From the IMG/VR virus record IMGVR_UViG_3300039155_000018, positions 1 to 64,000 of that record: DNA of 64,000 bases; one strand, given 5' to 3'. The notes beneath the pieces are model-generated. The model searched no databases, was not told where the DNA came from, and saw nothing but the letters and a program-made list of their open reading frames with translations. This DNA is from a virus. Taxonomy: Duplodnaviria; Heunggongvirae; Uroviricota; Caudoviricetes. Shown one piece after another: positions 19,778 to 46,170 of this stretch. The position numbers and the translations under genes were made by a program. The stretch's first letter is position 1, and every line of letters starts with the position of its first letter.

Positions 19778-20993
19778 CTGAACAAGCTTGAGCGCCCATA
19801 CTATCGACTTCTACAAACTTCTTCTCTTGTAGCTCTACAGAAAAATCTACATTCTGCACAGTCCGTTCGATTGTCTTCCACTTGTGAAGGTTGAAGCAAT
19901 CCTTTAGGCAGTTTGTCATTTCAAGAACATCATTGTTAAAGTAATTGTTAGCGAACTTTTTAGCGCGTCGCACCCAATCACGTTTCAACAGGTCTTCCTT
20001 TGCTTCAGGATCAAGCTTCAAGCCCCAGCCGTTGACTGTATCACAAGCCACCCACAGATTGTTGTTAAAGGCGTGCAGGCCATCTACAATCAAACCAGAC
20101 GCAAACATGCTAGCTTCGCCGTATTTATCCATAATCTGTTGTGCCGTGAACACTTCAGTGAACGGGGCTTGTGGGTATGCCTTATCACCCATCGCACTTA
20201 GCAAAGAGATACCAGCAAACCACTTACGGTTGTCGTAGATGTATTGCTCCACCTCGTTCCAGTCATCAACTGTAATGGTATTGGATACATTGTGCCGAAG
20301 ATTCGGATCAACACACAGCTCCACGTTAGTGCCATGCTCCACCCAATACTGCTGAGCCAGCTTCACATACTCTAGTTGTTTAACCCCCATCAAATCCTTC
20401 TTATAGATGCTACCTTCCTTACTGACAATCGGGAAGCTAACAACTTTGTCGGTTCCGGTATTAGACCACACACTGTTTTCCACCATCTTAGGGTTCTTTT
20501 CTATCATAAGGTGGAGCACGTCGTCTTGGTCATTCATCTGCACGTTACGGAAGTACATCGGAGAATGTTCCCCATGAATACCAGATGCAGTTCCAAGCAG
20601 GGTTGATGCGTTGCCCGACGGCTTTACACAAGTTGTACGAGCTGCCTGATTAATACCAATCATCTTTGCAACAACCTTGTTCCACTCTTTAACTACTTCG
20701 GCGCCGTCAACCATATTCTGCTTATCGAACAACACTTCAGGGTTATTCATCCAGCCGGTAATGCTTACGCCAATTAGTGCTTCCCGTTCAATAATCTCCT
20801 TAGATGCAGCAGAAAGATATTTAAAGTCAGTGTATCCTGCTTGTAGAGTACCAATAATCGAAGCAGCTTTGCAATTCGCAAGAAACTCTTCTCGGCTGTT
20901 GCAAGCAGAGCCACTAATTTCGCACAGGTTACATGCTTGGAAACCACTTCGCCCATCTGCCGTTTTCGGCAGTTTGCCAATCTCTACACCCAT
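19752..20993 (-). CDS. ribonucleotide reductase catalytic subunit, C-terminal ORF (NrdA/NrdJ-like part b)
   Basis: It has ACNLCEI, the NxCxE active-site motif, and the C-terminal redox pair CSGGAC, which resembles the CxSGAC tail of NrdA. It has its own AGGAG RBS and ATG. Confidence 0.75.
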   Translation of the reverse strand: MGVEIGKLPKTADGRSGFQACNLCEISGSACNSREEFLANCKAASIIGTLQAGYTDFKYLSAASKEIIEREALIGVSITGWMNNPEVLFDKQNMVDGAEVVKEWNKVVAKMIGINQAARTTCVKPSGNASTLLGTASGIHGEHSPMYFRNVQMNDQDDVLHLMIEKNPKMVENSVWSNTGTDKVVSFPIVSKEGSIYKKDLMGVKQLEYVKLAQQYWVEHGTNVELCVDPNLRHNVSNTITVDDWNEVEQYIYDNRKWFAGISLLSAMGDKAYPQAPFTEVFTAQQIMDKYGEASMFASGLIVDGLHAFNNNLWVACDTVNGWGLKLDPEAKEDLLKRDWVRRAKKFANNYFNNDVLEMTNCLKDCFNLHKWKTIERTVQNVDFSVELQEKKFVEVDSMGAQACSGGACELNW

Positions 20994-21084
20994 CTTGTTA
21001 CTCCTAATCTCTTAGGGGCTTAATCATTTCTGTTAAGCTCACATATTTTCACATGTGTGCGGACTATATCACCACCCTAGTCTC

Positions 21085-21765
21085 TTAGGGGCTAACCGTA
21101 CGGAAACTCTCATGGATTTTATATTGGAAGCTAGGTAACACATGCGGAGCAACCATTTCCATAAACTTGTAAAAATCCTTCATTCGAAGGCGCAGATAGT
21201 AATACTGATTCTGCCTATTAATGTTGAACTCAAGGTCAAGCTTTTCTTTCAAAGCTTTCTTCAGGATAAACAAATCCCCATAAGAAAGTCGTTTCATATT
21301 CAAGGTAACATTGTAGCTCCCGTTAACCAACCCCCTTTTAGGGTCAGGTTTAGTTGTCACAAAAGAGCCGTCGCACATGTAGAGGATTGCCAACGCCTCT
21401 GCGTCCAGCATCTTCAAAGCGTGCGGGTCAATCCCTTTATACTTTTCCGTATAAATTCGCCCATGAAGCGTAGTCAAAAGCGGGTGACGCTTACTCTCCA
21501 GCCGCAATTGAGGCTTACGGTCACACCCGTCAACATTGTAATCCTTCCTTTCAGAAACCCTACACCCAGTGATTTGCTCAAGAACATTTTTGCAGAAGAG
21601 AATATAATCCTCGTTATCTCTTTTCATGTTCATGGCAAAGAAGGCATTAGTCCCCTCTGTACGGTTCGGTGGAAAGTACAACCCACCGTCACCCATAACA
21701 ATGTAGCTGAGCAGTTTTACAAGTTCTTTCTTATTCACAGTTTCCATAGTCTCTACACTTCCCAT
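21085..21765 (-). CDS. LAGLIDADG-family homing endonuclease inserted in the RNR gene
   Basis: A single LLSYIVMGDGGLYF LAGLIDADG-type motif lies near the N-terminus. The 226-aa gene sits between the two RNR ORFs on the same strand. Confidence 0.55.
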   Translation of the reverse strand: MGSVETMETVNKKELVKLLSYIVMGDGGLYFPPNRTEGTNAFFAMNMKRDNEDYILFCKNVLEQITGCRVSERKDYNVDGCDRKPQLRLESKRHPLLTTLHGRIYTEKYKGIDPHALKMLDAEALAILYMCDGSFVTTKPDPKRGLVNGSYNVTLNMKRLSYGDLFILKKALKEKLDLEFNINRQNQYYYLRLRMKDFYKFMEMVAPHVLPSFQYKIHESFRTVSP

Positions 21766-21868
21766 ATCGGGTTAGCACGGGATTGTCTTCGCCTTTGAGC
21801 GGTCAGAGTTTCCCCGTTTTTAGGTTAGTTATTCAAAGCAGATCACTCTGCTAGGCCGCTAGTAGTTC

Positions 21869-22870
21869 TTAGTGAACAGTCAACGGATTGTAGGTAAATT
21901 CAAGATTCTCAGTAAAGATAAAAGCAGGCTCCCCGTAGTCACGTACAGACTTCATAATGTTTGCCCACTCTTCACGAGTAATTTCGTCGCGCAATAGCAT
22001 TACACTATTGTTACTTCGGCCTCTGGAGGGGTTGGTGATAAACCAATCTCCAGTTTTAGCCTTCAGCATCTCGTCGTCATCTTTAGAGAAGAGACAAATT
22101 GTTGCGCTCCTGCGAACACCGCCCGAAAGAACAGCGTCTGCCATAAACATTACAAAGTCATAAGCTGTAATCGGCTTCATTGCTACGGACTCTTTACTCT
22201 CTGCAATCTGCGCATCCAACAACTGCTCACACTTCTGTAAAGCAATCCGCAGACCGTCTGGACCCGGAGCTTTAAATCCTCCGCTAATCTCTGCACCTTT
22301 GGGGCGAATCTTGCTGAAGTCGAAGTGAACCTTACAACCCTTGTACTCTGGGAATGTACCACCATCCTCAAAGTAGCTACTGAGCAGCACACCAAAAGAA
22401 TCAGCCCAGCCTTCAATACTGTCTGGGATGGTGTAGACCTTGCTCTTTTTATCGAAACGTTTCTGAATTTTAGGAAGCTTTGCTACGTGGTGCTTTTGCA
22501 CGCTGAAGCCGACTCCACATCCACACAACAGCAAATACATCGACTCCTGAAACGCTGCTGCTCGGTCAATGTGAGTTGACACGCAGTTGTAGAGCCGGGC
22601 GTTGTGCTTGAAGAGTTGTTCACCGCCAAACTGCAAAGCTCGTTGAGCGCCTAGAACACTTTTCTTCTTATAAGCATTTTCTGCAAACTGAATAAGTTCT
22701 CCTAGTTCTGTAGTCATTACATCTTTATATTTGATGCGGTGCATATTCATTACACGTTCTACAGATTCTTCCCAAGTCTCGTAACGACCCTCGCCATCCA
22801 GCCACCGGGAGTAACCCATGTAGAATTTGGATTGGGCCATCATTTCTTTACCAACACCGCTGTTAATCAA
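21869..22870 (-). CDS. ribonucleotide reductase catalytic subunit, N-terminal ORF (part a)
   Basis: It carries LSGGVRRSATICLF, resembling the GGVRGGAATLFYP region of class I/II RNR alpha, and an upstream LLCGCGVGFSV candidate for the first active-site Cys. It ends at an in-frame stop about 100 nt before the endonuclease gene. Confidence 0.65.
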   Translation of the reverse strand: MINSGVGKEMMAQSKFYMGYSRWLDGEGRYETWEESVERVMNMHRIKYKDVMTTELGELIQFAENAYKKKSVLGAQRALQFGGEQLFKHNARLYNCVSTHIDRAAAFQESMYLLLCGCGVGFSVQKHHVAKLPKIQKRFDKKSKVYTIPDSIEGWADSFGVLLSSYFEDGGTFPEYKGCKVHFDFSKIRPKGAEISGGFKAPGPDGLRIALQKCEQLLDAQIAESKESVAMKPITAYDFVMFMADAVLSGGVRRSATICLFSKDDDEMLKAKTGDWFITNPSRGRSNNSVMLLRDEITREEWANIMKSVRDYGEPAFIFTENLEFTYNPLTVH

Positions 22871-24257: not shown

Positions 24258-25181
24258 TTAGTCTAGATGCTTTACAAATTCTTCACGTACAGTTTTGGTT
24301 ACTTCATTCTGTAATGATTTACTCCACAGCTTGTAGTTTTCTTCTACAACCTTCTTTACATCTGTACTTGTCTCTTTCTGGAAATCCTCAAGAATATCTT
24401 GAATTGTTAGACCAAGAACCTTCGGGAAATCTTTATTGGTGATTTGACCAATCTTACTAATCACATTACTTACTCGTTGGGGAGAATTATACTCCAGAAT
24501 ATTATCAAGTAAAGCTTGTTCTACTTCACTCAGACCAACGGCAGGTTTATGTTCTTTCTTGTTCTTCTTTTCCGTAAATGCTTCCGTTTTGTTCTTGAAG
24601 TATACGCGACTACCATTCTTAAACCAAGCAGGAATTACTGGTTCAATCACCACACCTTCTGCGAAGTTTTCACCTTCAAAACCCTTTTGGGTCAGGAGCG
24701 ATTGGAATTTGTTCTCTGCATCCATACATCCCTTGAAGAAACCTATGTAGAGAATGGGAGTGAAAGGAATGCCTATTTCGTAGGCAAGCCGAGCAGAATC
24801 AACTTTATTTAGGATAACACCATCAACTACGAATTCAAAAGCTGCGAAGTCTTTCTCGCCGTATACAACCTCTTTCTGAATACCTTGCCCATGCAGCTCA
24901 CCGTAAATCACAATCATGAAACAAGGGTTATTATTGTACCAATCCTTAATCTTCTGCTCATACTTGTTAATCACAGATTGACAATTGTAGAAAGTCCCCT
25001 CTACGAATTGACTACGAGATGCAACCTTAAAATCTTTCCCATCGTACCAAAAGCTGAAGTTTGCACCATGAATCTTCTCGGTGACGATCCACAACTGCTC
25101 ATCTAGACCTTCCAGCAACACCTTATCAATCAGGTTTTGACGGTAAGTGTTTTCAAGGCTTGTGAATTTCTTAAATTCCAT
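24258..25181 (-). CDS. rnl2: RNA ligase 2 (T4 Rnl2-like)
   Basis: It carries FKKFTSLEN, VTEKIHGANFSF (nucleotidyltransferase motif I KxHG), GELHGQGIQK and YGEKDF. These are near-colinear with T4 Rnl2. The start was taken at the second ATG (MEFKKF). Confidence 0.8.
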   Translation of the reverse strand: MEFKKFTSLENTYRQNLIDKVLLEGLDEQLWIVTEKIHGANFSFWYDGKDFKVASRSQFVEGTFYNCQSVINKYEQKIKDWYNNNPCFMIVIYGELHGQGIQKEVVYGEKDFAAFEFVVDGVILNKVDSARLAYEIGIPFTPILYIGFFKGCMDAENKFQSLLTQKGFEGENFAEGVVIEPVIPAWFKNGSRVYFKNKTEAFTEKKNKKEHKPAVGLSEVEQALLDNILEYNSPQRVSNVISKIGQITNKDFPKVLGLTIQDILEDFQKETSTDVKKVVEENYKLWSKSLQNEVTKTVREEFVKHLD

Positions 25182-25638
25182 CTTTGTTCCTCCTATACAA
25201 TACAATTTCAAATTCTTTATTGCTCACAATCTTAACCCCGTTCTCAGGAACAATCCATGGGTAATCTTCGATTGGGAAGAACACATCTGCTTTCCGCTCG
25301 GGAAGATTGAAGAAGTGTGTGACGTAGATCAAATCCACATGCTCCGCAAGTAGTTTATACGTCTTAGCCCCGCCAATCACCACCTTATCATCCATCCATC
25401 CCCAGCAGACACCTGCTTGGGAGTATGTTTCAAGAGTATCAATATCTTCTCGGTGCAAGACAATCAGTTCGCGGTTGGTCATCTTAGGCAGTGTCTGTGC
25501 TGTACGATACCCAACGATTAACTCCTTCTCTTGGGTAAATCCAGAGAAGAACCAAAGGTCCCGCATGTCCTTGTACAGCAACTCGTCCCCACAACCAATT
25601 CCCCAATCAGGACTCACTGCTACGATTGCTGTTAACAT
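25171..25638 (-). CDS. frd: dihydrofolate reductase
   Basis: It has AIVAVSPDWGIG and VIGGAKTY. The 155-aa size and its position next to thymidylate synthase fit, as in T4 frd-td. Confidence 0.7.
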   Translation of the reverse strand: MLTAIVAVSPDWGIGCGDELLYKDMRDLWFFSGFTQEKELIVGYRTAQTLPKMTNRELIVLHREDIDTLETYSQAGVCWGWMDDKVVIGGAKTYKLLAEHVDLIYVTHFFNLPERKADVFFPIEDYPWIVPENGVKIVSNKEFEIVLYRRNKDGI

Positions 25639-27932: not shown

Positions 27933-28157
27933 TCAACCTTTTGTATCTTCTAGGTATGCTTCTGAAGCCACCTTCAGATTACGAATCCAAGTAGGGTCGC
28001 TGGAGTCAGCCGCTGAGTTCGTTACAACCCTCCCTGTTTGCAGATAGTCCTCTGCCCACTGGACATGCTGCCCAAAAGGCATTGGCGGGAATATCCCTTC
28101 GGCATAACATTCCATAAACTCTCTAGTGGGAATAACAGGATTAAAATACTTTTCCAT
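27933..28157 (-). CDS. hypothetical protein
   Basis: A 74-aa ORF. Confidence 0.35.
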   Translation of the reverse strand: MEKYFNPVIPTREFMECYAEGIFPPMPFGQHVQWAEDYLQTGRVVTNSAADSSDPTWIRNLKVASEAYLEDTKG

Positions 28158-28920
28158 ACTTCTCCATCAAAAACTCTAGGGAAACAAACATAGGGCAACC
28201 AAACCCATCTTTCACATCGTGGAGCATAGTGACACCCCTGAAATGATTATTACCTTGAAACCCTTTGTAGTCCTCATCAAAAGGATAACAAGCCCCATTG
28301 ATAATACCAATCTGCATTTTACCGTCAATACTTGGGCGAATAGCCACGTCAAGAGTTTGTTTATGCCCGCATACAAAGCTCCGACCTACAGTTTTGAGTT
28401 GATTCATTGCAGTACCACCATAAGGTTTACCTGTGAATGGGTTAGCCAGATAGTGTACAAAGAAAATACCCTCGATTTCAACAGGTTGCAGGAATGGAAT
28501 GACTTCCCAACCTTGATTTTCAAGACCGAGAGTTTCCATTCCTACAAAGCCTTGGAGTTCTGGCATATTACTTGCCAGCCGGTCGAAGCGCTCCTCGTGG
28601 TTTCCCGTACAAAATACTAGGCGAGGATTATACACTTTCTTCTTCGACTGGCGCTGACGTTCTTGCAACTCGCGCAGGGGCGCCAACAGAAGGTCAAGAC
28701 CCTTATTACCAGCAGCAATGTCTGCCTTCAGGCGACGACCTTCAAAGGAAGCTTTACCTTTGTCATAAATACTCAGTGACGGGAAGTCAAAATTGTCTCC
28801 TATATGCACGACAACGTTCGGGCGTTTGTTAACAATGTAGTTCCCTATAGCTGACATGTAGGACAAATCTTCACCGGGCTTACATTGTGTATCTGCCACA
28901 ACTAGAATCTTTTTACTCAA
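28141..28920 (-). CDS. calcineurin-like metallophosphoesterase
   Basis: It has VVADTQ, HIGDNFD and GNHEERF. The start was set at TTG 28920 after AAGGAG. Confidence 0.55.
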   Translation of the reverse strand: MSKKILVVADTQCKPGEDLSYMSAIGNYIVNKRPNVVVHIGDNFDFPSLSIYDKGKASFEGRRLKADIAAGNKGLDLLLAPLRELQERQRQSKKKVYNPRLVFCTGNHEERFDRLASNMPELQGFVGMETLGLENQGWEVIPFLQPVEIEGIFFVHYLANPFTGKPYGGTAMNQLKTVGRSFVCGHKQTLDVAIRPSIDGKMQIGIINGACYPFDEDYKGFQGNNHFRGVTMLHDVKDGFGCPMFVSLEFLMEKYGKVF

Positions 28921-29125
28921 AACCACTCTCCTTAAATATAGGCATCTCAGATGCCGATTTGATTCCATAGAACACAAAGATAGCAGAACAACTCTACACT
29001 CTTACTTGCTCCGTACCAAAAGAAGAAATTATCTTCAAAATTAATCATTACTCATCCCTTAACTCATATAAGATTTACAGATGGGTGGGATATCCAGCTC
29101 GGTTGTGCTGAACTGATGGGTGGTT

Positions 29126-34992: not shown

Positions 34993-37107
34993 TCAGTGAG
35001 TCTCTTTCCAATTCTTCCCAACCTTAGCCTCCCCTGCCAATGGTACAGAGAGTTTCAAATACTGTCCAGCTTTTTCAATAGATTTCTCAATCAGCCGTCC
35101 AACTTCCTCAGCAATTGGAGACTCGCACTCAAATTCCACCTCATCGTGTACATATCCAATACGCCGAACAATGTAGCCTTTGTAAAGGTAGTATGGCCGG
35201 CGCTTCTCATCCCAGTGGATCTCCCCTAGCCAAGCATCTAGGAAGCAGCAGGCATAGTCCATCGCAATCCCCCCGCAACTTTGGAAAATCGTATTTAACA
35301 AGGCACTCTTCTTGCGAGTCCAGAGAATACGCCCGTCAATTGCAGGGAGGTATTTACCCTCTCCACGAGTTTCCCAATACTTTTCCAGCTTGTCCTTCAA
35401 TGCCTTTGTTCCGGGGTTAGCATCCCAAAACTTCTCCATTAGGGACTGTCCCATCTTCTCAGGAAGGCCAAGAGTTGACGCAACCTTCGGGCCAGCAGCC
35501 CCGTATAGGATAGCGTAAAATCCGTTTTTACTGCGGTCACGGTATGGCTTAAATACACGATCCTCTTTGTCAAAATCAGGGCTAGAGATATCAAAACTCT
35601 TCAACTCACTCAAGTGTCCAAAGAAGGCCATTGCGTTCTTAGAGTGTGGATCGCCTTTCAATAGTTCCTCAGCAGTTGCCCCATTATCATACTTGAACGT
35701 GTACGATCCTTGAACTCTCCCCTCCAGCGCCGCAGCATCCCCTGCTGCAATATCAAACCCATCTTCACAGCAAAACAGTTCTCGGAACTCTTTACCAAGC
35801 AATACTTTCTCACTGGCTTTAGGCACGTTCACAACGTTTTTGTGTTTCTGCCTGTGCGTAGCAGCAATGCCTGTACGACCTGCGCCAAGGCGACCATCGT
35901 ACTCCAGCCGATCATTCGACAACCAGCCCTCCAGTACAGAGAGTCGATTACGAAGACTCAACCACTTCACAACAAGCTTTACAATATCGCCTTCCATTTT
36001 CAAGAGATTCTGGCAAATCTTGCCGGCTTCCTGAATCTTAGGGCTTGTTGGAATCAGCTTGCGAGTTGTTGGATCTCGCATTGGTTTCCCATCTGGGCCT
36101 CGCTGATAATTCCAGAGGGTGGGCGACCAACCATTCTCCAAGAACCAATCCTTCATCTGATCTTGGTTCGCCATCTCCATCGGCATCTCAACATCAAGCA
36201 TACTTCCTGCAACAACTGGATAACTCTTGCCGTAGAAACTCCAAAGTCCCGTTTGCTCGTCAAGGACACCACTGTGCTTTGCCACGAAGTTTTCCCAAGA
36301 AGCTGAGAAATCCCCTGACTTCTTGAAGGGCTTGGCTGGCATGGTGTAGTTCTTCTCCTCGGACTTCTTCAACTTTCGAGGTGGGAGCTTCGGCTCTACT
36401 TCTGCACGAATCTCCTCCATCATCCCCTCAATGCGTACCTTGAGAGCCTTGGCCTTCGGAATGTCAAACTTCCACCCGGCATATTCTTGGCACGACATCA
36501 AGAAGAAACTCTTCTGCCCACACTTAAAGTGGTCAGGCATACTTTTGTCATTCCACTTGTAGAACTTAAGATGCTCTTCTAGCAATGCAAAGAACACACG
36601 CTTGTTAACATCAACGTCCCGTTCGCAATAGACGCCCATTTGTGGATGCCACTGCATAAACTCCGCGCCTTTCGGAGAGTCTTTAGAGATCAAACCAAGC
36701 TCAATAGCTTCTGAGCGCCAATCAATCTTTGCAAGACCCAGACGCTCACCCCAAGCCTCAATGCCATGACCAACCCTATCAGGCATGAGGAACATGCTCC
36801 AGTAGTATGTGTCCACATATCGGCATGGCTTGCCTAGGATGGTGTCAGGCCCGACAGTGAAGCCAATATCTAAGAGAGCGCGCATTACAAACGCATCGAA
36901 GCCTAGTCCGTTGTGGAATGCAACAACTGGATTCTCATAGCGATTCACCCAAGCATTGAATTTCTCAAATGCCTTGTCATCCTCAAAAGGATTTACAGAC
37001 ATCTTCTCTCCAGTATCCAAATCTTCAAAGTGGATACACCAGATTTTGGTAGCTTCAAAGTAAAACCCATCACTCTCGATATCCAGTACGAAGCCATTGA
37101 TTTTCAA
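34993..37107 (-). CDS. family A DNA polymerase with 3'-5' exonuclease (T7 gp5-like)
   Basis: It has LDIESDG (Exo I), VAFHNGLGFDAFV and GHGIEAWGERLG, which resemble T7 gp5 VFHNGHKYDVPAL and SHALEAWGYRLG, and a C-terminal YVHDEVEFEC motif C. It is 704 aa, the same length as T7 gp5. Confidence 0.85.
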   Translation of the reverse strand: MKINGFVLDIESDGFYFEATKIWCIHFEDLDTGEKMSVNPFEDDKAFEKFNAWVNRYENPVVAFHNGLGFDAFVMRALLDIGFTVGPDTILGKPCRYVDTYYWSMFLMPDRVGHGIEAWGERLGLAKIDWRSEAIELGLISKDSPKGAEFMQWHPQMGVYCERDVDVNKRVFFALLEEHLKFYKWNDKSMPDHFKCGQKSFFLMSCQEYAGWKFDIPKAKALKVRIEGMMEEIRAEVEPKLPPRKLKKSEEKNYTMPAKPFKKSGDFSASWENFVAKHSGVLDEQTGLWSFYGKSYPVVAGSMLDVEMPMEMANQDQMKDWFLENGWSPTLWNYQRGPDGKPMRDPTTRKLIPTSPKIQEAGKICQNLLKMEGDIVKLVVKWLSLRNRLSVLEGWLSNDRLEYDGRLGAGRTGIAATHRQKHKNVVNVPKASEKVLLGKEFRELFCCEDGFDIAAGDAAALEGRVQGSYTFKYDNGATAEELLKGDPHSKNAMAFFGHLSELKSFDISSPDFDKEDRVFKPYRDRSKNGFYAILYGAAGPKVASTLGLPEKMGQSLMEKFWDANPGTKALKDKLEKYWETRGEGKYLPAIDGRILWTRKKSALLNTIFQSCGGIAMDYACCFLDAWLGEIHWDEKRRPYYLYKGYIVRRIGYVHDEVEFECESPIAEEVGRLIEKSIEKAGQYLKLSVPLAGEAKVGKNWKETH

Positions 37108-37167: not shown

Positions 37168-37746
37168 CTAGTTCCACACAACTTCATAAGCCTTAAGACT
37201 ATCGTAGGCTTGCTGAGAAACACTGTCCTTCCACTTATCAGCAAGCTTCGAAATGTGCTCTTCCTTTGCAACTTTGTACGCTTCAGCAGCGAATTGGACA
37301 CTATCGGTTGATAGTAAATGCTTACTCACTCTTCGACCATCCGTGTTCATTGAAAGCTGGGCGATATACTTACCGCTTTCAGCCTTAATGCTAACACTCG
37401 GAGGGAGTCCGTTCCTACCTCTGTTGTTTTGAAGGGCACAGTTTACTTCGTTCGGTAGAAAACAGCAGAACTCGGGACAGTAAATCCTATTGCCGGGTTT
37501 TATTAAATCCTTGTCAAGTTGGAATCCCTCAACATAGTTTTCCAAGAACCAACCAGCATAGTTTGAGAGGATTTGCCACTCGCTACATACCTCCACATCC
37601 TCATAGGTTGGCTTACTGGCGTGGTAAACCTCGCTATATGATCGGCGGTGAATACTGTGCCAAGTCGGGTATGCCGGGTGTTTACTATCGAGGTCGTTTA
37701 TGCCAACTCCAAATACCTTGTGGTTCTTCCACTTAACTAGTCCCAT
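37168..37746 (-). CDS. AP2-domain homing endonuclease-like protein
   Basis: The C-terminal half has SGKYIAQLSMN.GRRVSKHLLSTDSVQFAAEAYKVAKEEH, an AP2 DNA-binding fold. The N-terminal half is a nuclease-like region. It is inserted between the polymerase and the primase-helicase. Confidence 0.5.
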   Translation of the reverse strand: MGLVKWKNHKVFGVGINDLDSKHPAYPTWHSIHRRSYSEVYHASKPTYEDVEVCSEWQILSNYAGWFLENYVEGFQLDKDLIKPGNRIYCPEFCCFLPNEVNCALQNNRGRNGLPPSVSIKAESGKYIAQLSMNTDGRRVSKHLLSTDSVQFAAEAYKVAKEEHISKLADKWKDSVSQQAYDSLKAYEVVWN

Positions 37747-37757
37747 TATTTCTCCAT

Positions 37758-39551
37758 TTAAAAATCAACTTCTTGAGGATTGTCCTTCAGCCAATCGTCA
37801 AAATCATACAATGTGTGCGTCTCGTTACTGTAGAAGAACTGTCCAGCTACCGGAGAAGTACGACCAGTCCAGCGGCACTTAGTCATCTTCATGGTTGTTA
37901 CGTTGCGAAGAGTCTCGTTCTCGTGTTCCTTGTTCCGAGTAAATAGCAAGTTACAAGCACTACTCTTAAAGATTGACGAAGAACCCATAAAATCCTCCTC
38001 ATGCAAGTCTGCCCCAGTCGAGTTTGCCTTGGCACCGCTGCTACTTTTGCGTACATGACTAATAAGAATGAAAGAGACTTGGTGACTTTTCACCATACCC
38101 TTCAACCACTTCATGAACACGGACTGTTCTTCATTACTCAAACCATCCAGAACGTCAGTCAGCGGATCAAGGATAATTACTCGGCAATCACAAGCAACAA
38201 TAAGTTGCATAATCTGCTCCTTGAGACTATCCAAACCGCCGTCACGTTCGTCGATCAAGTGGAATCGGTGCGTTCCATCTGAGTTCTTAAATAGCTCGAT
38301 AGACTTCTTATCAACTTCTTCAGAATTAAGGAAGTTAACCTTGTATTCCGCGTCATCAATCAAGTCAATCTTCTTGCTAATATGCCGAGAAAGAAGCTTC
38401 GTACCGTATTGGGCACAGTCACTCTCCAAACTCACAATACCAATCTTGTGTGGGCTATTGAAAGCCCAGTAATACACCATCTCTTCAGATATCGTGGATT
38501 TGCCCGCACCTGACATTGACCCCATGACAAGGATAGTACCAAGTGGAATCCCCCCGGCCATAAGTCCCTGAAGCTTGTGCATGAATGGTGGAAGAGGGAT
38601 CTTAGGCACAACAGCAGCCTGCTTGATCTTCTCCATCAAATCACCACTACCTACGATACCGTCTGGTGTGTAAGAAGATGCACGGAAGAACGCATTAATA
38701 AACTCTTTGTTCTTCCCAGCTTGCAGCATTTCATTCACATCTTTCATCGGCAAAGTCATAACAAAAACCTTACCCTTTGGAAGAACTTTTGCGAGCTTAT
38801 CCAAGGCATCCTTACCCGGAGCATCTTGGTCTGGGATCACAATGATCCGCTCAAACCGACTAAACCACTCGTAGTGATTCTGGACTTGTTTGAAACCAGC
38901 CAGCTCGCCAACAGTGGAACTAACAACTGGGATTGGCTCGTACTCACTACCACGACTTTCATTGTAATCTTTCAGCATCTGAAAAGCGCTGAGCTGGTCA
39001 ATCTCACCAGCAGCAATAACGCAATACTTTCCAGAAGACTTTGCAAAGCGAAAGTAGCCGAACATATCGGCAGACCGGGTGCAGTCACCAATTGCTGTAA
39101 ATTGCTTCGGCATACCCCTCCGCTTATAACCTACTAGCGTGCCGTCCTTGGTAATTGGATAATACTGTGCTTCTAGCTCCCCGTTAGTTGTGCTGTACTC
39201 TTGGCGTACACCGAAGAATGCACAAGTCTCCCGCTTAAGGCCACGATAGCCTTTCGGGTCTACAGATGTAATTTCTTTCAGCTTATTGTGAATATCTTCA
39301 TTGAACTCCGCGCCCACTAGATCAAACTCCTCTTCTTCAACTTCGCCATTAATTTCCAACCACTCTTGACTTGGAATTGTGTAATTACAAGAAAAGCAGT
39401 AGCCTCCCTTGTGCCGCCCATCTGAATCAAGGCCGTAGCGCATGAAGTTATCAGAAGACGCATCCCTCCCAAGCTTCACCTTACATCTCGGGCAGCCACA
39501 CTTCCCCTCCACTGAAAGGTCAATGTCGATCCCATATCGTGTAACGATCAC
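37758..39551 (-). CDS. bifunctional primase-helicase (T7 gp4-like)
   Basis: It has an N-terminal zinc ribbon (CGCPRC ... CFSCNY) and a TOPRIM region (IVIPDQDAPG). The DnaB-type helicase region has Walker A GSMSGAGKST. Confidence 0.8.
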   Translation of the reverse strand: MIVTRYGIDIDLSVEGKCGCPRCKVKLGRDASSDNFMRYGLDSDGRHKGGYCFSCNYTIPSQEWLEINGEVEEEEFDLVGAEFNEDIHNKLKEITSVDPKGYRGLKRETCAFFGVRQEYSTTNGELEAQYYPITKDGTLVGYKRRGMPKQFTAIGDCTRSADMFGYFRFAKSSGKYCVIAAGEIDQLSAFQMLKDYNESRGSEYEPIPVVSSTVGELAGFKQVQNHYEWFSRFERIIVIPDQDAPGKDALDKLAKVLPKGKVFVMTLPMKDVNEMLQAGKNKEFINAFFRASSYTPDGIVGSGDLMEKIKQAAVVPKIPLPPFMHKLQGLMAGGIPLGTILVMGSMSGAGKSTISEEMVYYWAFNSPHKIGIVSLESDCAQYGTKLLSRHISKKIDLIDDAEYKVNFLNSEEVDKKSIELFKNSDGTHRFHLIDERDGGLDSLKEQIMQLIVACDCRVIILDPLTDVLDGLSNEEQSVFMKWLKGMVKSHQVSFILISHVRKSSSGAKANSTGADLHEEDFMGSSSIFKSSACNLLFTRNKEHENETLRNVTTMKMTKCRWTGRTSPVAGQFFYSNETHTLYDFDDWLKDNPQEVDF

Positions 39552-39867: not shown

Positions 39868-40434
39868 TCAGCTTTCCAGTTTAGCTAATTCCTTAATAAG
39901 CTCCTGCTTTCGACGTTCCTTAAGTTCTTCAGCCGCCTGAGACTTATACTTGTCAAAGATCTGATAGAAATTATCATAAACAAGCTTAGCATTTTCAGAT
40001 GTGAAGTACAAAGCGTGATTATTGGTATCAGAGTAGGCCGGCGAATAAGACTTCAACTCCTCAAAGAACTTATTAAAAGTATCTTTTGGATAGTACTCCC
40101 CAAAGATGTAAGCCCCTGTGGGGAACCCGATCTTGAACAACCACTCGTTCTCTGGTTGACGACCATCGTCTGACCAAGAAATAGTGCGGTTATGTTCTTC
40201 ACCGAACAGGCCGATAATCATAAAGTCATCGTAACGACTACTCCCAACTTGCATCCACTCACTGTTGGATTCCATGTACCGCAACGGGATTCCAAACTTA
40301 TCTGAGATCTTTAGATTAGCAATCACTCGTCGAAGTGAATCTGTATCTAGGTGGATGTTCTCGCCAATAGTGGCAGAATAGGTTTGGACTACTTCCAGAA
40401 TAGCCTCACACGCCTTAATTTTCTCTTGCATCAC
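39868..40434 (-). CDS. hypothetical protein
   Basis: A 188-aa ORF. Confidence 0.45.
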   Translation of the reverse strand: MMQEKIKACEAILEVVQTYSATIGENIHLDTDSLRRVIANLKISDKFGIPLRYMESNSEWMQVGSSRYDDFMIIGLFGEEHNRTISWSDDGRQPENEWLFKIGFPTGAYIFGEYYPKDTFNKFFEELKSYSPAYSDTNNHALYFTSENAKLVYDNFYQIFDKYKSQAAEELKERRKQELIKELAKLES

Positions 40435-40697
40435 TCTTCTCCCTTATCAATGATTTCCCAAATTTCTTGTTCAACCAACCCCTCAACATCCCCACTATAC
40501 TCTTTAAAACCAACGCTCTCCACCTTCTTTACAAATTCAATAGTATCCCCGCCATGAGCACAGGCCCCGTGGCAATACCAGCTATTTGTATCCTCATAGA
40601 CGTGGAGAGATGGAGTCTTTTCCCCATGCAAAGGGCAGCAAACTTTACTACCACTAAACGAGCCCGTATAGTGCTCAATTACATCTCTAATCACCAC
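40431..40697 (-). CDS. stand-alone CHC2 (DnaG-type) zinc-finger protein
   Basis: CPLHGEKTPSLHVYEDTNSWYCHGACAHGGDTIEFV matches the primase zinc-binding domain CPFHxEKTPS...CFGCGxxGD. Confidence 0.6.
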   Translation of the reverse strand: MVIRDVIEHYTGSFSGSKVCCPLHGEKTPSLHVYEDTNSWYCHGACAHGGDTIEFVKKVESVGFKEYSGDVEGLVEQEIWEIIDKGEE

Positions 40698-40709
40698 GCA
40701 TCCACTACT

Positions 40710-40937
40710 CTATTCCACAATCTCATAGTCCCTAGGACTGACATACCAGAAATCACTACCGTCCAGATAATCGAAACGACCCTCGTTATATTCACCTGTA
40801 CGGACGACAATCTCTCCGATAGAGAATTCATGTCTTGAATGATTGGCAATCACTCGAACACGAGTACCTACAGGAACATCACTCTCCATAGACCTCCTCC
40901 TCAATCTCAAACGCAAACTCTCCAGAGATAGCTTCAA
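40710..40937 (-). CDS. hypothetical protein
   Basis: A 75-aa ORF. Confidence 0.35.
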   Translation of the reverse strand: MKLSLESLRLRLRRRSMESDVPVGTRVRVIANHSRHEFSIGEIVVRTGEYNEGRFDYLDGSDFWYVSPRDYEIVE

Positions 40938-41066
40938 GCTCTTCCTCGTCTACACAATGTTCCCCAATGCAAGCAGACAGAAGCTTCCAGCCAATTTCGC
41001 TGACAGCTACTTCCATCTCATATCCAAATACATTAATGTTCTTGATAGTCATTATTAGTCTCCTTT

Positions 41067-41312
41067 CTAGAATTCCACTTTATAAGTGATCGAATTCAGG
41101 TAATCCACGATTAGCTTGGCAGTGTCGTAGCTCTGTTGATCTTCAACATGAACGTGTCCATCATCAGGAGTCCACCCCTCAGCAATTTCTCGCTCTGATG
41201 CGAAAGGTTCTGCAAAGTGGTTAGGACTCCAAATCTTAAAGACCGTAACACCGTTAAACTGCACTTTAGTACCGTAATACTTACCCTTCAACTCACCAAC
41301 AGTCCAAGTCAT
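41067..41312 (-). CDS. small conserved protein, paralogue of 39555..39818
   Basis: See the paralogue at 39555..39818. Confidence 0.45.
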   Translation of the reverse strand: MTWTVGELKGKYYGTKVQFNGVTVFKIWSPNHFAEPFASEREIAEGWTPDDGHVHVEDQQSYDTAKLIVDYLNSITYKVEF

Positions 41313-41752
41313 TTCACATCTCCTACAAGTCTATAACCAGCGTCGTATAGGTCTGCACAAATCTCCCACGAACCATAACCCTTGACGGCAGATTCCATCT
41401 CAGTGATTGCTTTCTTTCGTGCCTTCTCTACATCTTCTTTGTAGTATTGCTTCCCACCAATTTCAATCTTCTCTCGTATTTCTGGGAGGATCACTTCTTC
41501 CACCTTATAGTGTGCGAAGAGTTCATATCCCAGTGGTTGTCCGGTAGATAGTGATTTGTAACACATTTTACCCGACAAAATCCCGTCTTCGGATAACACA
41601 TTAGTAATGTAACCCACTACACCAAATACGGTGTATGGTCGGGTATGGAACCATCCAATTCCCTGTTCAAATAGCCAGTTCTGCACGCTAATACTCTCTT
41701 CAAAAGAGTTCACACGAATATACCACGGGTCTTTCTTCAGATCAAACGTCAT
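41309..41752 (-). CDS. hypothetical protein
   Basis: The start was moved to ATG 41752 (GGAGGAAGAGG upstream). The longer track ORF overlaps 41742..42023 out of frame. Confidence 0.4.
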   Translation of the reverse strand: MTFDLKKDPWYIRVNSFEESISVQNWLFEQGIGWFHTRPYTVFGVVGYITNVLSEDGILSGKMCYKSLSTGQPLGYELFAHYKVEEVILPEIREKIEIGGKQYYKEDVEKARKKAITEMESAVKGYGSWEICADLYDAGYRLVGDVK

Positions 41753-42023
41753 AAACCTCTTCCTCCACTGTAGATAAGTTTTCCAGAATCTTTTCTTCCA
41801 CGAGCACTTCGTAATTACTGAAAACGATAATAGCATCTTTCTCTGGAATGTCAACTCCCTCGTCAGATACAGCATAGCACTCAAAATCCACTTCAGCCGG
41901 ATAGCCTTGATAATCCCAATCAGAGGCTTCATCCCATCTGAATGTTCCGGGAATCTCTGGGCAATAATGGGAGATGTGGCACTTGAATGTGTACCCATCA
42001 AGATTGATGTACATCACTGTCAT
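41742..42023 (-). CDS. acidic hypothetical protein
   Basis: A 93-aa ORF. Confidence 0.4.
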   Translation of the reverse strand: MTVMYINLDGYTFKCHISHYCPEIPGTFRWDEASDWDYQGYPAEVDFECYAVSDEGVDIPEKDAIIVFSNYEVLVEEKILENLSTVEEEVYDV

Positions 42024-42523
42024 TTACGCATCCACTTCTTGTAATTTCCCCGAGGGTCAAACCCATCGTACTCTACAAATGTAACGTCTTCACCTCCCAT
42101 TTCTTCATCGATGATTGCGGAGATAATACTCCAGTCACCACCCGCGCGTGCAGCACCAATAGCAGGGATACCGAATCGCAACGACTTTTCACCGAAACGT
42201 TTCTTGATATCCTTGAAACAACTCCGTAGAGCATCATACTCACAAAGTGGTCCACCATTCAATCCTACACCATACCATCGGTACTGGGTGTAAGCATTGA
42301 CAACAACCCCGCCACTGTCAAGACCTGCACAAGAGATTGTTCCCAGCTTGCTGATATCCCAAGCCTTTGTTTCAAGGTCAGCAGCATAAGCTTCTGGGAA
42401 CTCGTCACGGATTGTCTTAGCAATACCGTCTCCCATGTTGTTACCGCAATTGCAACCATGGACAATCACGTCAAATTCACCTTCTTTAAACAACTTAATC
42501 AGGTCCCCTGTAATCTTCTTCAC
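42020..42523 (-). CDS. macro-domain protein (ADP-ribose binding / ADP-ribosyl hydrolase-like)
   Basis: DVIVHGCNCGNNMGDGIAKTI corresponds to the macro-domain VNAANxxLxxGGGVxxAI region. A second Gly-rich stretch GIPAIGAARAGGD follows. The protein is 167 aa. Confidence 0.55.
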   Translation of the reverse strand: MKKITGDLIKLFKEGEFDVIVHGCNCGNNMGDGIAKTIRDEFPEAYAADLETKAWDISKLGTISCAGLDSGGVVVNAYTQYRWYGVGLNGGPLCEYDALRSCFKDIKKRFGEKSLRFGIPAIGAARAGGDWSIISAIIDEEMGGEDVTFVEYDGFDPRGNYKKWMRK

Positions 42524-42777
42524 TCTGTAATCTCCTCAAAACTTCCGTTGGTACGAGTGTAATAGCCATCACCAAGGTCGATGGAACACTCTCCAAAGCT
42601 CAAGAAAGCCTTGGGGCGTACATTGTCCTTATTAAGCTCCAACACCTCTCCAGTGAGCTTACAACGAAACTTACGTCCAATCCATGCTTCTGGACGGAAT
42701 ACGTTGTCTCCTTGTCGTACAACCTCACTCGCTTCTGCATAGTCCATGTCAATCCTCCTCTTCTTGAATAAGTCCAT
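42520..42777 (-). CDS. hypothetical protein
   Basis: An 85-aa ORF. Confidence 0.4.
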   Translation of the reverse strand: MDLFKKRRIDMDYAEASEVVRQGDNVFRPEAWIGRKFRCKLTGEVLELNKDNVRPKAFLSFGECSIDLGDGYYTRTNGSFEEITE

Positions 42778-43345
42778 CTTCCATCATTCGCTTGATAGTG
42801 TCAAGACTCACGTTGTATTTCTCTGACAGCTTCTCTTCACGAGTCTTCTCAGGGATGTTTCGGAAATGAAAAATGTCCTTGATGAAGGCATGACAATATG
42901 TGTGGTTCAGCAGGTCGGTAATAAAAATCACTTCCTGATTCTTGCTCCAATAGGTAATGCGCACCTCATCATTTACACCAATACACATGATGTATTCCTT
43001 ACCTACTTCAAGATCGCCTACAGAGAGGATTTCTTTCGACTCTTTTTCCCCGTAGAATGGAATCAGGCACTCAGGAATTTCTACGCCTTCTTCTTTGACA
43101 GTGAAGTACCAGTATTCTTCTGAGTCACTCCATACCCAAGAGATATCCGCGAGCTGCTCGGTGACTTCCGTACTCCCATTCTCCTTGTAACGCACTCTAC
43201 CGAGGGGCACATATTGCGAGAGCCTAACAGTCCCGAGAAACGGACCCTCTTCCCAAGAATTTAAACTGTCAGCTTTGTTGACAGTTTCCCAAGTTTCCTT
43301 GGTCCACTCATATTCCTTACCCGGAATGTAATATTGCTTAGCCAT
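42749..43345 (-). CDS. hypothetical protein
   Basis: A 198-aa ORF. Confidence 0.45.
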   Translation of the reverse strand: MAKQYYIPGKEYEWTKETWETVNKADSLNSWEEGPFLGTVRLSQYVPLGRVRYKENGSTEVTEQLADISWVWSDSEEYWYFTVKEEGVEIPECLIPFYGEKESKEILSVGDLEVGKEYIMCIGVNDEVRITYWSKNQEVIFITDLLNHTYCHAFIKDIFHFRNIPEKTREEKLSEKYNVSLDTIKRMMEDGLIQEEED

Positions 43346-43989
43346 TACTGCTCCTCCTTTGGAGCGATTGGTTCTCCCCCTATAGCATTTAAAGCTTTTC
43401 TAAGGATGATCGAGTTTACTTGGTCCTCACTACTAGCGCAGCCAAATTTACCCTCAAACCGTTGTTTCATTTTCTGAGGGTGAGGATCACCCCATTCATA
43501 ACCTTCACTTAGAAACATACTTTTAGAGGCAAGAGTCTTCTTGAATGCATTGGTGAGTCGAATATTCATATTAACATCTGCCCAAATCTTGCAGATGGAG
43601 ACATCCATATACTCGATCACTTTAAATTGGCTACCTAGAGTTACAAGCTGGATAAACTGAACCTCCATGCCGGCAATTTTACATTGCCATACACGAATCA
43701 GGGAAGGCATTTTATGATAGAGATTACTCATCTCTCGCACACCACTCGAACTACTTCCATGAATTTCTGAGAGAGTTTTGATTTCCACATCTTTAAAGAC
43801 CTTCTGTAGTTGATTCCTGCAAGCACTCACTGTTGTGGCTGTAGAAACGTAGTAGAAGTCTAGGTCATTACACTCATTTCCAAAATACCAATCACGAGGG
43901 GCACCACCAGCCAGTACGCAATAAGGGTCAATAACCTTCAACTTCTCGTATACACCCTGAGCTGTAGCTTTTTGCTGTTCGATTGTCAT
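43345..43989 (-). CDS. Pol-beta-superfamily nucleotidyltransferase (CCA/poly(A) polymerase head-like), second copy
   Basis: It has VLAGGAPRDWYFG ... NDLDFYY, the GGxxRD / DxD signature. The start was set at ATG 43989 (GGAGGTAAGCGA upstream), which overlaps the stop of 43986..44195. Confidence 0.45.
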   Translation of the reverse strand: MTIEQQKATAQGVYEKLKVIDPYCVLAGGAPRDWYFGNECNDLDFYYVSTATTVSACRNQLQKVFKDVEIKTLSEIHGSSSSGVREMSNLYHKMPSLIRVWQCKIAGMEVQFIQLVTLGSQFKVIEYMDVSICKIWADVNMNIRLTNAFKKTLASKSMFLSEGYEWGDPHPQKMKQRFEGKFGCASSEDQVNSIILRKALNAIGGEPIAPKEEQ

Positions 43990-44195
43990 TCGCTTACCTC
44001 CTTCACTTGTAGAGAAATTACAACTTCGCATGTTTGATTGCGAGGAATCGTTGCTTCACATTTTTCTTTCAGGGTGTGCACACCACTGTAGCTAAAACCA
44101 AGAACCTTTTCATTAGCGTAAGTATGCACAATAAGGATAAAGAACGTAAAAATACCCCACCCTACGCACCTCAACAGCCATTCTTTCATTTTCAC
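43986..44195 (-). CDS. small membrane protein, first gene of the long - strand block
   Basis: A 69-aa ORF with one TM helix (GWGIFTFFILIV). Confidence 0.35.
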   Translation of the reverse strand: MKMKEWLLRCVGWGIFTFFILIVHTYANEKVLGFSYSGVHTLKEKCEATIPRNQTCEVVISLQVKEVSE

Positions 44196-44782
44196 CTCCT
44201 TTATTCGAGTGGACGCTCTTCTAGCGAATGAGCCTATCTTACCATCAATCTACTCTGCTGCGTCAACTGAAATTTTCTATAGCTTTACACCTCGCTGATA
44301 AATTTCTCCTATCCTCTTGACTTTCACGCTTTAAGTGTGTTAAGGTGGTTTTTGAAATTAACAAAAGGCGTTTCGGCAAGGTTTCCCTTGGCTTCAGCAG
44401 CTAAAAGCAAAACCAGACAAATCCCAAAGAAGGGCAATAGTGCCAGCACTGACTACCTCTGTCAACTGGCGACCTGCAAACGTCGAAAGACGGAGACCTA
44501 TAAGAACAGAAATGTTCTGCCTGCTTGATGAGAATATCCAAGACAGTCGTATCATCTTGTAGTGGTGAAGGTTAAGTCACCAAGGGAGTGCTACCTACGG
44601 ACAAGGTAGTTAAGGCATATGCTGTACGCCTTGAGAGATTGAATCTTATTCCTCTTCCACTTTACTGAGTGGTTGTAATTATCCTTAGACCGATATAAAG
44701 TCAGGTTGCTGCACGAGGCAGTGGCTGGGTAATTGCAGGGAGTGAGAGAGGGTTGGTTTATCTAAAATTTAATGGGGTTTAT

Positions 44783-45019
44783 ATGCGTAAGTGGTCTATC
44801 AATCCTTTGGTGCAAGAGCTTAGCTTCGATGAGAGAATTTCTGTTGTCAAGGAAGCTTTGGTAATGTATCATCAGGAGTATATTTTAGAGTCTTCCCGCC
44901 AAGAAGAATGGTTGTGGGGATTAGAAGAAGCTTTAGAAAAGCAACACTATAACAAAATTACAGACAATGCTGTTGATATGTGTTGGAAGATAATTCGAGG
45001 AGATTATAACGATAACTGA
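44783..45019 (+). CDS. hypothetical protein (+ strand island)
   Basis: The ORF is in the 44753 frame. The likely start is the internal ATG (MRKWS). Confidence 0.35.
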   Translation: MRKWSINPLVQELSFDERISVVKEALVMYHQEYILESSRQEEWLWGLEEALEKQHYNKITDNAVDMCWKIIRGDYNDN

Positions 45020-45156
45020 CAAAGCACGAGAACCTGCAATCATAAAAGTTGTAAAGATTGCAGACACAAAAGCAAATCTCAAGCAAAGTATTCTTGACAA
45101 CGACGAAAAGCGTATCGTAAAGTATGCAAAACAACTAATGCTTTTGGAGGAATAAA

Positions 45157-45396
45157 ATGCAAATCACACGTAATGAAAAACAATTTGAACCAATCACTAT
45201 CGCTCTTGAGAGTCAAATGGAGGTGGACGCTCTTGTGGATGTGTTGTGCCTCACCAATATCAACACTACGGGTTCGAACGAGGCTACACAGTTTATTTCA
45301 GTCCTGAGTGGTCTACTAAATGAATACGCTAGTAATAAACAAGGACTAGTTTATTACAATGAACCTGACGGTACTGTGGAAGTAGAAGCAAAGTAA
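45157..45396 (+). CDS. hypothetical protein (+ strand island)
   Basis: A 79-aa ORF with GGAGGAATAAA upstream. Confidence 0.4.
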   Translation: MQITRNEKQFEPITIALESQMEVDALVDVLCLTNINTTGSNEATQFISVLSGLLNEYASNKQGLVYYNEPDGTVEVEAK

Positions 45397-45410
45397 ATTA
45401 AAGACAAAGA

Positions 45411-45452
45411 AAAGCCCCTGACACCTCGAAAGAAGTGCAGGGGCTTTATTGT
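45411..45452. terminator. bidirectional terminator
   Basis: The 10-bp stem AAAGCCCCTG / CAGGGGCTTT is followed by TATTGTT on the + strand and by T-runs on the - strand. Confidence 0.5.
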
Positions 45453-45824
45453 TCAATTCTTATTATTTTCAATCTTTAATTCGGGACTAAAAGTATTAGT
45501 GACATTGACAGACGCTCTGCTTGTTATTGTGTTTGTTATAGCTCTGTCATACTTATTCACAACAACATCTAAACGCCTATTTATAGTGTTGTAGTAAGTA
45601 TCTTGTCTAGCCTCTGCCTTGGCCACTCTATCTTCTATATATTCAAGATTTTGCCTTAGTTGTTTTTGTGTTTGTTCTACATGCAAATCTATACGGTCTT
45701 GAATATATACAGTATCCCTAGAGCTTCCAGCTCCTTTGAGGAGAATAGTATTTAGTGTTACGCCAGTTACGATGATGACTGCTATCAGAATATGTCTGAT
45801 TGTTTTTGATGTAGATTCATCCAC
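45453..45824 (-). CDS. membrane-anchored coiled-coil protein
   Basis: It has an N-terminal TM helix (ILIAVIIVTGV) followed by coiled coil. Confidence 0.4.
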   Translation of the reverse strand: MDESTSKTIRHILIAVIIVTGVTLNTILLKGAGSSRDTVYIQDRIDLHVEQTQKQLRQNLEYIEDRVAKAEARQDTYYNTINRRLDVVVNKYDRAITNTITSRASVNVTNTFSPELKIENNKN

Positions 45825-45834
45825 TACTTCCTCC

Positions 45835-46170
45835 TTATTTTTTAGGAGATAGGATGTGTGCCTCTAGTCTGGAGAGTGAAGCTTGTTGACTCTCAATTTT
45901 GTTCAGGAGATTAGTGGAGTGCAGTTGTTGTACAGTGTTAAGTGTGTTAATCATAGCATCCATTCTGGAGTTGATACTATTAACTGCCTCTGTAAGCTCC
46001 TGCTTTCCAATCTTTTCTTTATCCAGAGCAATTGAATGTCTTTCTAGGTTTGATATCCTTACTTCTTGTTGCTTAAAAGTCCAGACACTCATTGCGATCA
46101 GCATCGACAGTAAGAGAGCGATGATGGACTTAGATACACTCCAAGCCTCTGCTTTAATTTCCAATGCCAT
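45835..46170 (-). CDS. membrane-anchored coiled-coil protein
   Basis: It has an N-terminal TM helix (IIALLLSMLIAMSVW) followed by coiled coil. Confidence 0.4.
   Translation of the reverse strand: MALEIKAEAWSVSKSIIALLLSMLIAMSVWTFKQQEVRISNLERHSIALDKEKIGKQELTEAVNSINSRMDAMINTLNTVQQLHSTNLLNKIESQQASLSRLEAHILSPKK

Follow-up and report, generated by a model that had tools for sequence, protein, structure and literature searches.

The 64,000-nucleotide stretch analyzed here (positions 1 to 64,000 of IMG/VR virus record IMGVR_UViG_3300039155_000018, a Caudoviricetes phage; hereafter the window) carries a gene for a small stand-alone macrodomain protein, which we show to be a divergent member of the recently described Tk.4/AdfM family rather than a new kind of system. 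An earlier note, made from the nucleotide letters alone, had placed a 167-amino-acid (aa) open reading frame (ORF) at 42020-42523 without giving its strand. The ORF exists at exactly these positions on the minus strand, with its stop codon counted in.

42020-42523, minus strand: macrodomain gene of the Tk.4/AdfM family (PHROG 335), 167 aa, with a GTG start at 42523 and a TGA stop at 42020-42022
42532-42537, minus strand: Shine-Dalgarno sequence GAGGAG, 8 nt 5' of the GTG, as read from the sequence

A macrodomain gene and its fold

The start and stop codons overlap the two co-directional neighboring genes by 4 bp each (GTGA and ATGA). The product has 2226 homologs in a large protein collection, the top one at E=5e-105, and the ratio of nonsynonymous to synonymous substitution rates (dN/dS) is 0.15 against a 94%-identical ortholog from a related 83-kb phage contig. 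Together with the Shine-Dalgarno sequence, these features argue that the gene is real and not a chance ORF. Scanning its surroundings for promoters and terminators yielded no excess of sites over shuffled sequence (8 versus 9.2 and 4 versus 2.6), which is uninformative on expression timing and operon limits.

The earlier note had read a macrodomain from a Gly-rich signature and proposed a Pfam Macro (PF01661) search as a check. The Pfam result is divided: the window protein itself reaches 15.8 bits (E=0.013), below the gathering score of 22, with a match spanning 111 of the 118 profile positions, whereas 45 of 54 close homologs (a sample at 53-94% identity to the window protein) match the family at E<=0.01, the best at 1e-10. 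A profile built from the homologs matches the solved structures of BT1257 (6e-16), SCO6735 (4e-12), Mycobacterium tuberculosis (Mtb) DarG (5e-9), human TARG1 (1e-8) and Poa1p (9e-6). The AlphaFold2 (AF2) model is confident (pLDDT 94, pTM 0.90) and matches macrodomain structures, with human TARG1 as the top Foldseek match (E=8e-10, TMt 0.81), and phage Tk.4 and macro proteins rank highest in a BFVD structure search. The model displays the three-layer α/β/α macro fold and not a different one. Two Gly-rich ADP-ribose-binding loops, HGCNCGNNMGDGIA and PAIGAARAGGDW, lie beside the pocket and align with their counterparts in DarG, TARG1 and SCO6735; the motif on which the earlier note relied, VIVHGCNCGNNMGDGIAKTI, corresponds to residues 19-38. 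Both structure and sequence are nearer to the ALC1-like class (TARG1, DarG, SCO6735 and Poa1p) than to the MacroD, PARG, viral-nsP3 or macroH2A classes. Given the Pfam matches of its homologs, the recovery of solved structures by their profile and the confident AF2 model, the window protein is a macrodomain of the ALC1-like class, and the fold and signature claimed for it are confirmed.

A MacroD/YmdB type, as implied by the JGI label of the protein, is not upheld, as the protein falls in the ALC1-like class.

Family membership and the active site

The window protein matches the PHROG 335 profile at E=9.5e-53, and T2 Tk.4 (1.3e-65) and PhiKZ gp104 (8.2e-43) fall into the same family (loci compared: L001 1495-1962 and L010 4423-4890 for T2/T4 Tk.4, and L006 12518-13006 for PhiKZ gp104). 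T4 Tk.4 shares 34% identity with the window protein over 160 aligned columns (E=4e-25), and tblastn recovers related sequences from 2461 phage records, among them the tk.4 genes of T-even, Aeromonas, Vibrio and Acinetobacter phages. The only defense-related models that the window protein matches are those of DarG (PADLOC 6e-8, NCBIfam 5e-7). Two papers from 2025-26 describe members of this family. In a transposon screen tk.4 was the single T4 gene required on a DarTG2 host and was named adfM, and a clean knockout sensitized T4 to DarTG2; enzymatic removal of ADP-ribose by T4 Tk.4 is inferred rather than shown by the authors (bioRxiv 10.1101/2025.11.20.689424). PhiKZ gp104, independently named AdfM, is required on DarTG2 hosts, de-ADP-ribosylates oligonucleotides carrying thymidine-linked ADP-ribose (T-ADPr) and neutralizes DarT2, as established by genetics and biochemistry (PMC13309987). 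The label "phosphatase" attached to PHROG 335 is misleading.

Like the window protein, T4 Tk.4 is a stand-alone phage macrodomain (~155-167 aa) without a partner. No DarT, ADP-ribosyltransferase (ART) or other partner domain was found by Pfam among the eight ORFs neighboring the window gene, nor any PHROG match of that kind, and the DarG C-terminal domain is absent from the 167-aa protein. The macrodomain gene is thus an orphan, as Tk.4 and the NADAR factor AdfN are reported to be.

The window protein was aligned with T2 Tk.4, PhiKZ gp104, BT1257, SCO6735, Mtb DarG and TARG1, and residue correspondences were taken from MAFFT and HMMER alignments.

42419-42460, minus strand: loop 1 of the ADP-ribose pocket, H22-A35 (HGCNCGNNMGDGIA), in which H22, N25, G33 and A35 are invariant in the 54 homologs
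42284-42286, minus strand: codon of Gln80, which aligns with the catalytic Lys of DarG (K80) and TARG1 (K84) and with the essential Gln85 of SCO6735; invariant in 54 of 54
42131-42166, minus strand: loop 2 (diphosphate-binding), P120-W131 (PAIGAARAGGDW), in which P120, G123, G129 and W131 are invariant

H22, N25 and Q80, each invariant in all 54 homologs, are the equivalents of His24, Asn27 and Gln85 of Streptomyces coelicolor SCO6735, and the same His/Asn/Gln residues are present in Tk.4, which shares an HGCNC...TQ signature with the window protein. SCO6735 rescues DarT toxicity and outpaces DarG and TARG1 in stripping T-ADPr from DNA; its Q85A mutant is inactive, the activity of its N27S mutant is nearly abolished, and its proposed mechanism is lysine-independent, backbone- and water-mediated (PMC9411070). 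By alignment, then, the window protein carries the key residues of the sole biochemically studied Gln-type enzyme, as does Tk.4. Within this Gln-type ALC1-like subclass, His/Asn/Gln replace the Lys or Lys/Asp of other members, and the subclass has an extended "mobile loop" that exceeds those of DarG and TARG1 by about 5 aa. The window protein has such a loop after Gln80 (YRWYGVGLNGGPL), similar in length to those of SCO6735 and Bacteroides thetaiotaomicron BT1257 and longer than those of Tk.4, DarG and TARG1, though neither its sequence nor its basic residues (SCO6735 K89) are conserved.

The catalytic position divides the aligned proteins into those with Gln (the window protein, Tk.4, BT1257 and SCO6735) and those with Lys (DarG, PhiKZ gp104 with K78, and TARG1). 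Because Tk.4 has Gln where PhiKZ gp104 has Lys, the alignment implies that the name AdfM, like PHROG 335, covers two mechanistic types, a DarG-like Lys type (PhiKZ gp104) and an SCO6735-like Gln type (Tk.4 and the window protein). This split is not stated in the available text of the two AdfM papers.

Each relative also differs from the window protein. Compared with T4 Tk.4, only the window protein has the longer post-Gln80 loop, an Ala-Arg variant of loop 2, Asp32 and a basic C-terminal tail; tk.4 lies in the tk-vs region of T4, while the window gene lies in the replication block of a myovirus of the ~83-kb class, and the anti-DarTG2 phenotype belongs to T4 Tk.4 and not to the window protein. 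SCO6735 and BT1257, at 24-26% identity, are of cellular origin and not known to act in phages; they lack a C-terminal tail and have H[VI]CND in place of HGCNC. TARG1 (OARD1/C6orf130) likewise cleaves T-ADPr DNA and uracil-linked ADP-ribose (U-ADPr) on RNA (PMC9411070, PMC13036486), but it is eukaryotic and functions in the de-mono-ADP-ribosylation of proteins, and its Lys84/Asp125 dyad is replaced by Gln80 and Ala127 in the window protein. Yeast Poa1p shares 16-18% identity and acts on a small molecule from tRNA splicing, a pathway of which no trace was found among the scanned window ORFs.

DarG proper was considered and rejected, because three of its defining features are lacking. The catalytic Lys (Taq DarG K80; K78 in PhiKZ gp104) is Gln80 in the window protein, which is 19-21% identical to DarG and PhiKZ gp104. 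DarG has ~330-340 aa with a C-terminal DarT-binding domain, and the window protein reaches only 29.3 bits against a cut-off of 250 with NCBIfam NF048014 (DarG), over profile positions 5-154 of 338, and matches positions 12-144 of 329 of the PADLOC DarG model. Finally, darT adjoins darG in DarTG2, and no darT is adjacent to the window gene.

Shorter matches to the family occur in Pakpunavirus-type Pseudomonas phages and Pectobacterium phage Wc4-1 (phage-collection hits H35-H38; 92-94-kb myoviruses), where only residues 1-83 match, at 44-47% identity, under the annotation "phosphatase | hypothetical protein". The confined match and this annotation suggest that the macrodomain gene of these phages is split, truncated or fitted with a replaced C-terminal half. 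The cellular homologs of 147-151 aa (Cytophagales) lie in conserved housekeeping surroundings with the toxin absent, and a Pseudomonas parafulva homolog sits inside a prophage.

Proposed function and competing explanations

We consider it probable that the window protein acts as an orphan antitoxin, an ADP-ribosylglycohydrolase that undoes the DarT2-type ADP-ribosylation of thymidine in phage single-stranded DNA (ssDNA). Membership in PHROG 335, the conserved H22/N25/Q80 set, the dN/dS of 0.15 and the maintained position beside replication genes favor this function; its catalytic activity, its thymidine-DNA substrate and its role against DarTG2 are what we infer from its relatives. Upon infection, host DarT2 would use nicotinamide adenine dinucleotide (NAD+) to ADP-ribosylate thymidine in phage ssDNA, so that replication stalls. 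The macrodomain enzyme would then be produced from a block that also encodes primase, helicase and DNA polymerase, and its loops 1 (H22-A35) and 2 (P120-W131) would enclose the ADP-ribose. Asn25 and Gln80 are predicted to position the distal ribose for lysine-independent, water-mediated chemistry like that proposed for SCO6735, and cleavage of the ribose-thymine bond would release free ADP-ribose and leave the base intact. The suggestion in the earlier note that the gene reverses ADP-ribosylation-based immunity is thereby supported, since such reversal is reported for two PHROG 335 members, T4 Tk.4 and PhiKZ gp104. With the window protein, the Tk.4/AdfM anti-DarTG2 family gains a divergent member whose phage is uncultured and known from a metagenome assembly; the practical value is modest, lying in annotation and in the selection of test cases.

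Several observations weigh against this assignment. Gly128 of SCO6735, which is also kept in BT1257, DarG and TARG1, corresponds to Ala125 in the window protein, and the G128E mutant of SCO6735 is impaired (PMC9411070). Asp32 occupies the site of the DNA-facing Lys34 of SCO6735. Function is here drawn from relatives at 24-35% identity (Tk.4 34%; SCO6735 and BT1257 24-26%), and the ALC1-like class also acts on Glu-linked protein ADP-ribose (PMC9411070) and on U-ADPr RNA (PMC13036486), so that the substrate is not readable from sequence. For T4 Tk.4, too, the preprint only infers how the protein works (bioRxiv 10.1101/2025.11.20.689424). Asp32 presumably resembles the loop-1 Asp of MacroD enzymes, a likeness to which we give no weight.

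The breadth of the class brings other substrates into consideration. It is unlikely, though worth weighing, that the protein removes Glu/Asp-linked mono-ADP-ribose from proteins, reversing host ART toxins or tuning ADP-ribosylation written by the phage itself. T4 writes its own ADP-ribosylation with Alt, ModA and ModB, and the window model has strong fold matches to TARG1 and SCO6735, both of which strip Glu-linked ADP-ribose from PARP1 E988Q (PMC9411070). However, the TARG1 dyad for ester substrates is precisely what Gln80 and Ala127 replace, no ART lies beside the macrodomain gene or among those window ORFs that were scanned (a part of the total), and the phage phenotypes reported for PHROG 335 members concern DarTG2 and DNA only. 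An RNA-directed hydrolase, for instance one acting on uracil-N3-ADPr and shielding the transcripts or tRNAs of the phage from an ART defense directed at RNA, is improbable by a somewhat wider measure. SCO6735, DarG and TARG1 all cleave U-ADPr on ssRNA in vitro (PMC13036486), and an Rnl2-type RNA ligase and a nucleotidyltransferase in the window hint at RNA repair; yet the ligase lies 17 kb from the macrodomain gene, no bacterial defense against phages that places U-ADPr on RNA appears in the literature considered, and the modification of adenine by CmdT is called irreversible so far (PMC13036486).

The database labels "phosphatase" and "O-acetyl-ADP-ribose deacetylase" originate from yet another idea, that of a small-molecule enzyme, either a Poa1p-like ADP-ribose-1''-phosphate phosphatase or an O-acetyl-ADP-ribose deacetylase. 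These labels are homology transfers, not tests; among the scanned ORFs neither a Tpt1/KptA-type source of ADP-ribose-1''-phosphate nor a sirtuin source of O-acetyl-ADP-ribose was found, and no phage need for such chemistry is evident, whereas the DarTG2 phenotype of Tk.4 is experimental. We therefore regard a small-molecule enzyme as very unlikely. A noncatalytic or signal-directed binder that sequesters or degrades an ADP-ribose-derived immune signal (Thoeris-type gcADPR or His-ADPR) seems more remote still: the His, Asn and Gln residues that SCO6735 needs for catalysis are invariant, which argues for an enzyme rather than a binder, the protein resembles ThsA far less than it does the DarG/TARG1 class, and we found no precedent in the literature considered. 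The earlier note had also raised the clearance of free ADP-ribose produced by NADase defenses. This proposal is unsupported, as the published assays of relatives that we considered contain no activity on free ADP-ribose; recycling of ADP-ribose is credited to NARP1, and rebuilding of NAD+ to the pnuC/nadR module (PMC13464706).

A further departure from thymidine reversal would concern only the closest relatives of the window protein. Within the 54-sequence sample we define a subclade of 19 closest relatives, the window protein included, and those members that were checked come from phage or prophage contigs. Three features set it apart.

42023-42070, minus strand: clade-specific basic C-terminal tail, residues 152-167 (DGFDPRGNYKKWMRK), from the alignment
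42146-42151, minus strand: Ala125-Arg126 codons, the loop-2 variant of the subclade
42428-42430, minus strand: Asp32 codon, at the acidic position 31/32

In loop 2, position 125 is Gly in 38 and Ala in 16 homologs and position 126 is Leu in 34 and Arg in 19, so that Ala-Arg in the window protein replaces the usual Gly-Leu. Arg126 and the tail, whose subclade consensus is G[DN][YFW][KR][KR]x[MI], co-occur in 19 of 19 subclade members and in none of the other 35 sequences; Ala125 accompanies Arg126 in 16 of the 19, and an acidic residue stands at 31/32 in 16 of the 19 as well. Tk.4, SCO6735, BT1257 and the cellular homologs of 147-151 aa have none of Arg126, the tail and the acidic residue. The AF2 model gives the tail a pLDDT of 76-85 with a short helix at 161-164. 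As the 19 sequences are related by descent, these features are a clade signature and not independent evidence. Possible roles include a salt bridge between the loops, a contact of the tail with DNA, or an altered substrate. It is improbable, to about the degree of the RNA-directed hydrolase above, that the subclade has been retargeted away from DarT2-modified thymidine, in which case it may act on another ADP-ribosylated nucleic-acid base, on RNA or on an ADP-ribose-derived immune signal, or that the tail is a new DNA-clamping or toxin-binding element. If true, a tail of either kind would add a second, nonenzymatic mode of DarT neutralization.

Genome surroundings and the NAD module

From ~64 kb down to ~11 kb, nearly all genes of the window lie on the minus strand. 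The tail module at 45-64 kb (sheath, tape measure, baseplate and fibers) is separated by a ~1-kb gap with two small opposite-strand ORFs from the block that contains the macrodomain gene. In transcription order this block encodes a nucleotidyltransferase, a 198-aa ORF, an 85-aa ORF, the macrodomain protein, several small ORFs and a primase Zn-ribbon, and it continues with a primase-helicase, an HNH endonuclease and DNA polymerase A.

43345-44031, minus strand: nucleotidyltransferase (phrog_10174; weak match to the PolyA_pol head domain), three genes upstream of the macrodomain gene
40431-40697, minus strand: primase Zn-ribbon, a separate 88-aa ORF
37758-39551, minus strand: primase-helicase
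34993-37107, minus strand: DNA polymerase A

The placement of the gene in a replication block, as the earlier note had it, holds: the gene is closely followed, on its own strand, by those for the primase Zn-ribbon, the primase-helicase and DNA polymerase A, and it might be expressed early. On the related 83-kb contig it likewise precedes the helicase and the polymerase, while the nearby small ORFs differ. Within the block, the HNH endonuclease (37168-37746, minus strand) lies between the primase-helicase and DNA polymerase A, and a 188-aa ORF without matches parts the primase Zn-ribbon from the primase-helicase (region 39868-40697, minus strand).

A megablast of 40000-46000 against a phage collection returned no match, so that the phage lacks a close cultured relative at the nucleotide level there. 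The nearest proteins come from Pseudomonas syringae phages phiPsa315, Pyxpy and KIL and from Pectobacterium phage Bobbio (61% identity for the primase-helicase, 36-38% for the tail sheath), which are myoviruses of 90-100 kb, and the tail-fiber matches are scattered among Pseudomonas, Ralstonia, Sinorhizobium and Serratia phages at ~40% identity each. The guanine-cytosine (GC) content of the window is 44%, and no tRNA genes were found in it. By these comparisons the phage probably represents a new lineage at the genus level or higher.

At the other end of the window lies a NAD module, which the earlier note had named alongside the macrodomain gene, and both of its ORFs are present.

3001-3669, plus strand: PnuC-type transporter of nicotinamide riboside/nicotinamide mononucleotide (PF04973, E=4.8e-31)
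3666-4706, plus strand: NadR-like protein (AAA_28, E=6.7e-15)

The two ORFs overlap by 4 bp. NARP3, published in 2026, is a two-gene NAD+-reconstitution module of Enterobacteriaceae phages that counters Sir2-HerA (PMC13464706); the window pair matches its two-gene arrangement, carried here by a distantly related uncultured myovirus. With a macrodomain gene and a NARP3-type pnuC/nadR pair in one phage, the phage appears to stack two countermeasures against NAD+-consuming immunity. The link between them is thematic, not physical, since both would counter immunity of this kind but they lie 38 kb apart on opposite strands.

Further loci stand apart from these systems. A LAGLIDADG homing endonuclease gene (21085-21765, minus strand; PF03161, E=7e-24) is flanked by a class II ribonucleotide reductase ORF (N-terminal and insertion domains; 21869-22870) and by a 413-aa ORF without a Pfam match (19752-20993), an arrangement in which the reductase gene may be split by a mobile endonuclease at 19752-22870. 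The Rnl2-type RNA ligase mentioned above is encoded at 24258-25211 on the minus strand. Of the several phosphoesterases that the earlier note placed in this genome, two calcineurin-like ones were found (1554-2240, plus strand; 28141-28977, minus strand), and together with the nucleotidyltransferase and the RNA ligase they could form an RNA-repair toolkit.
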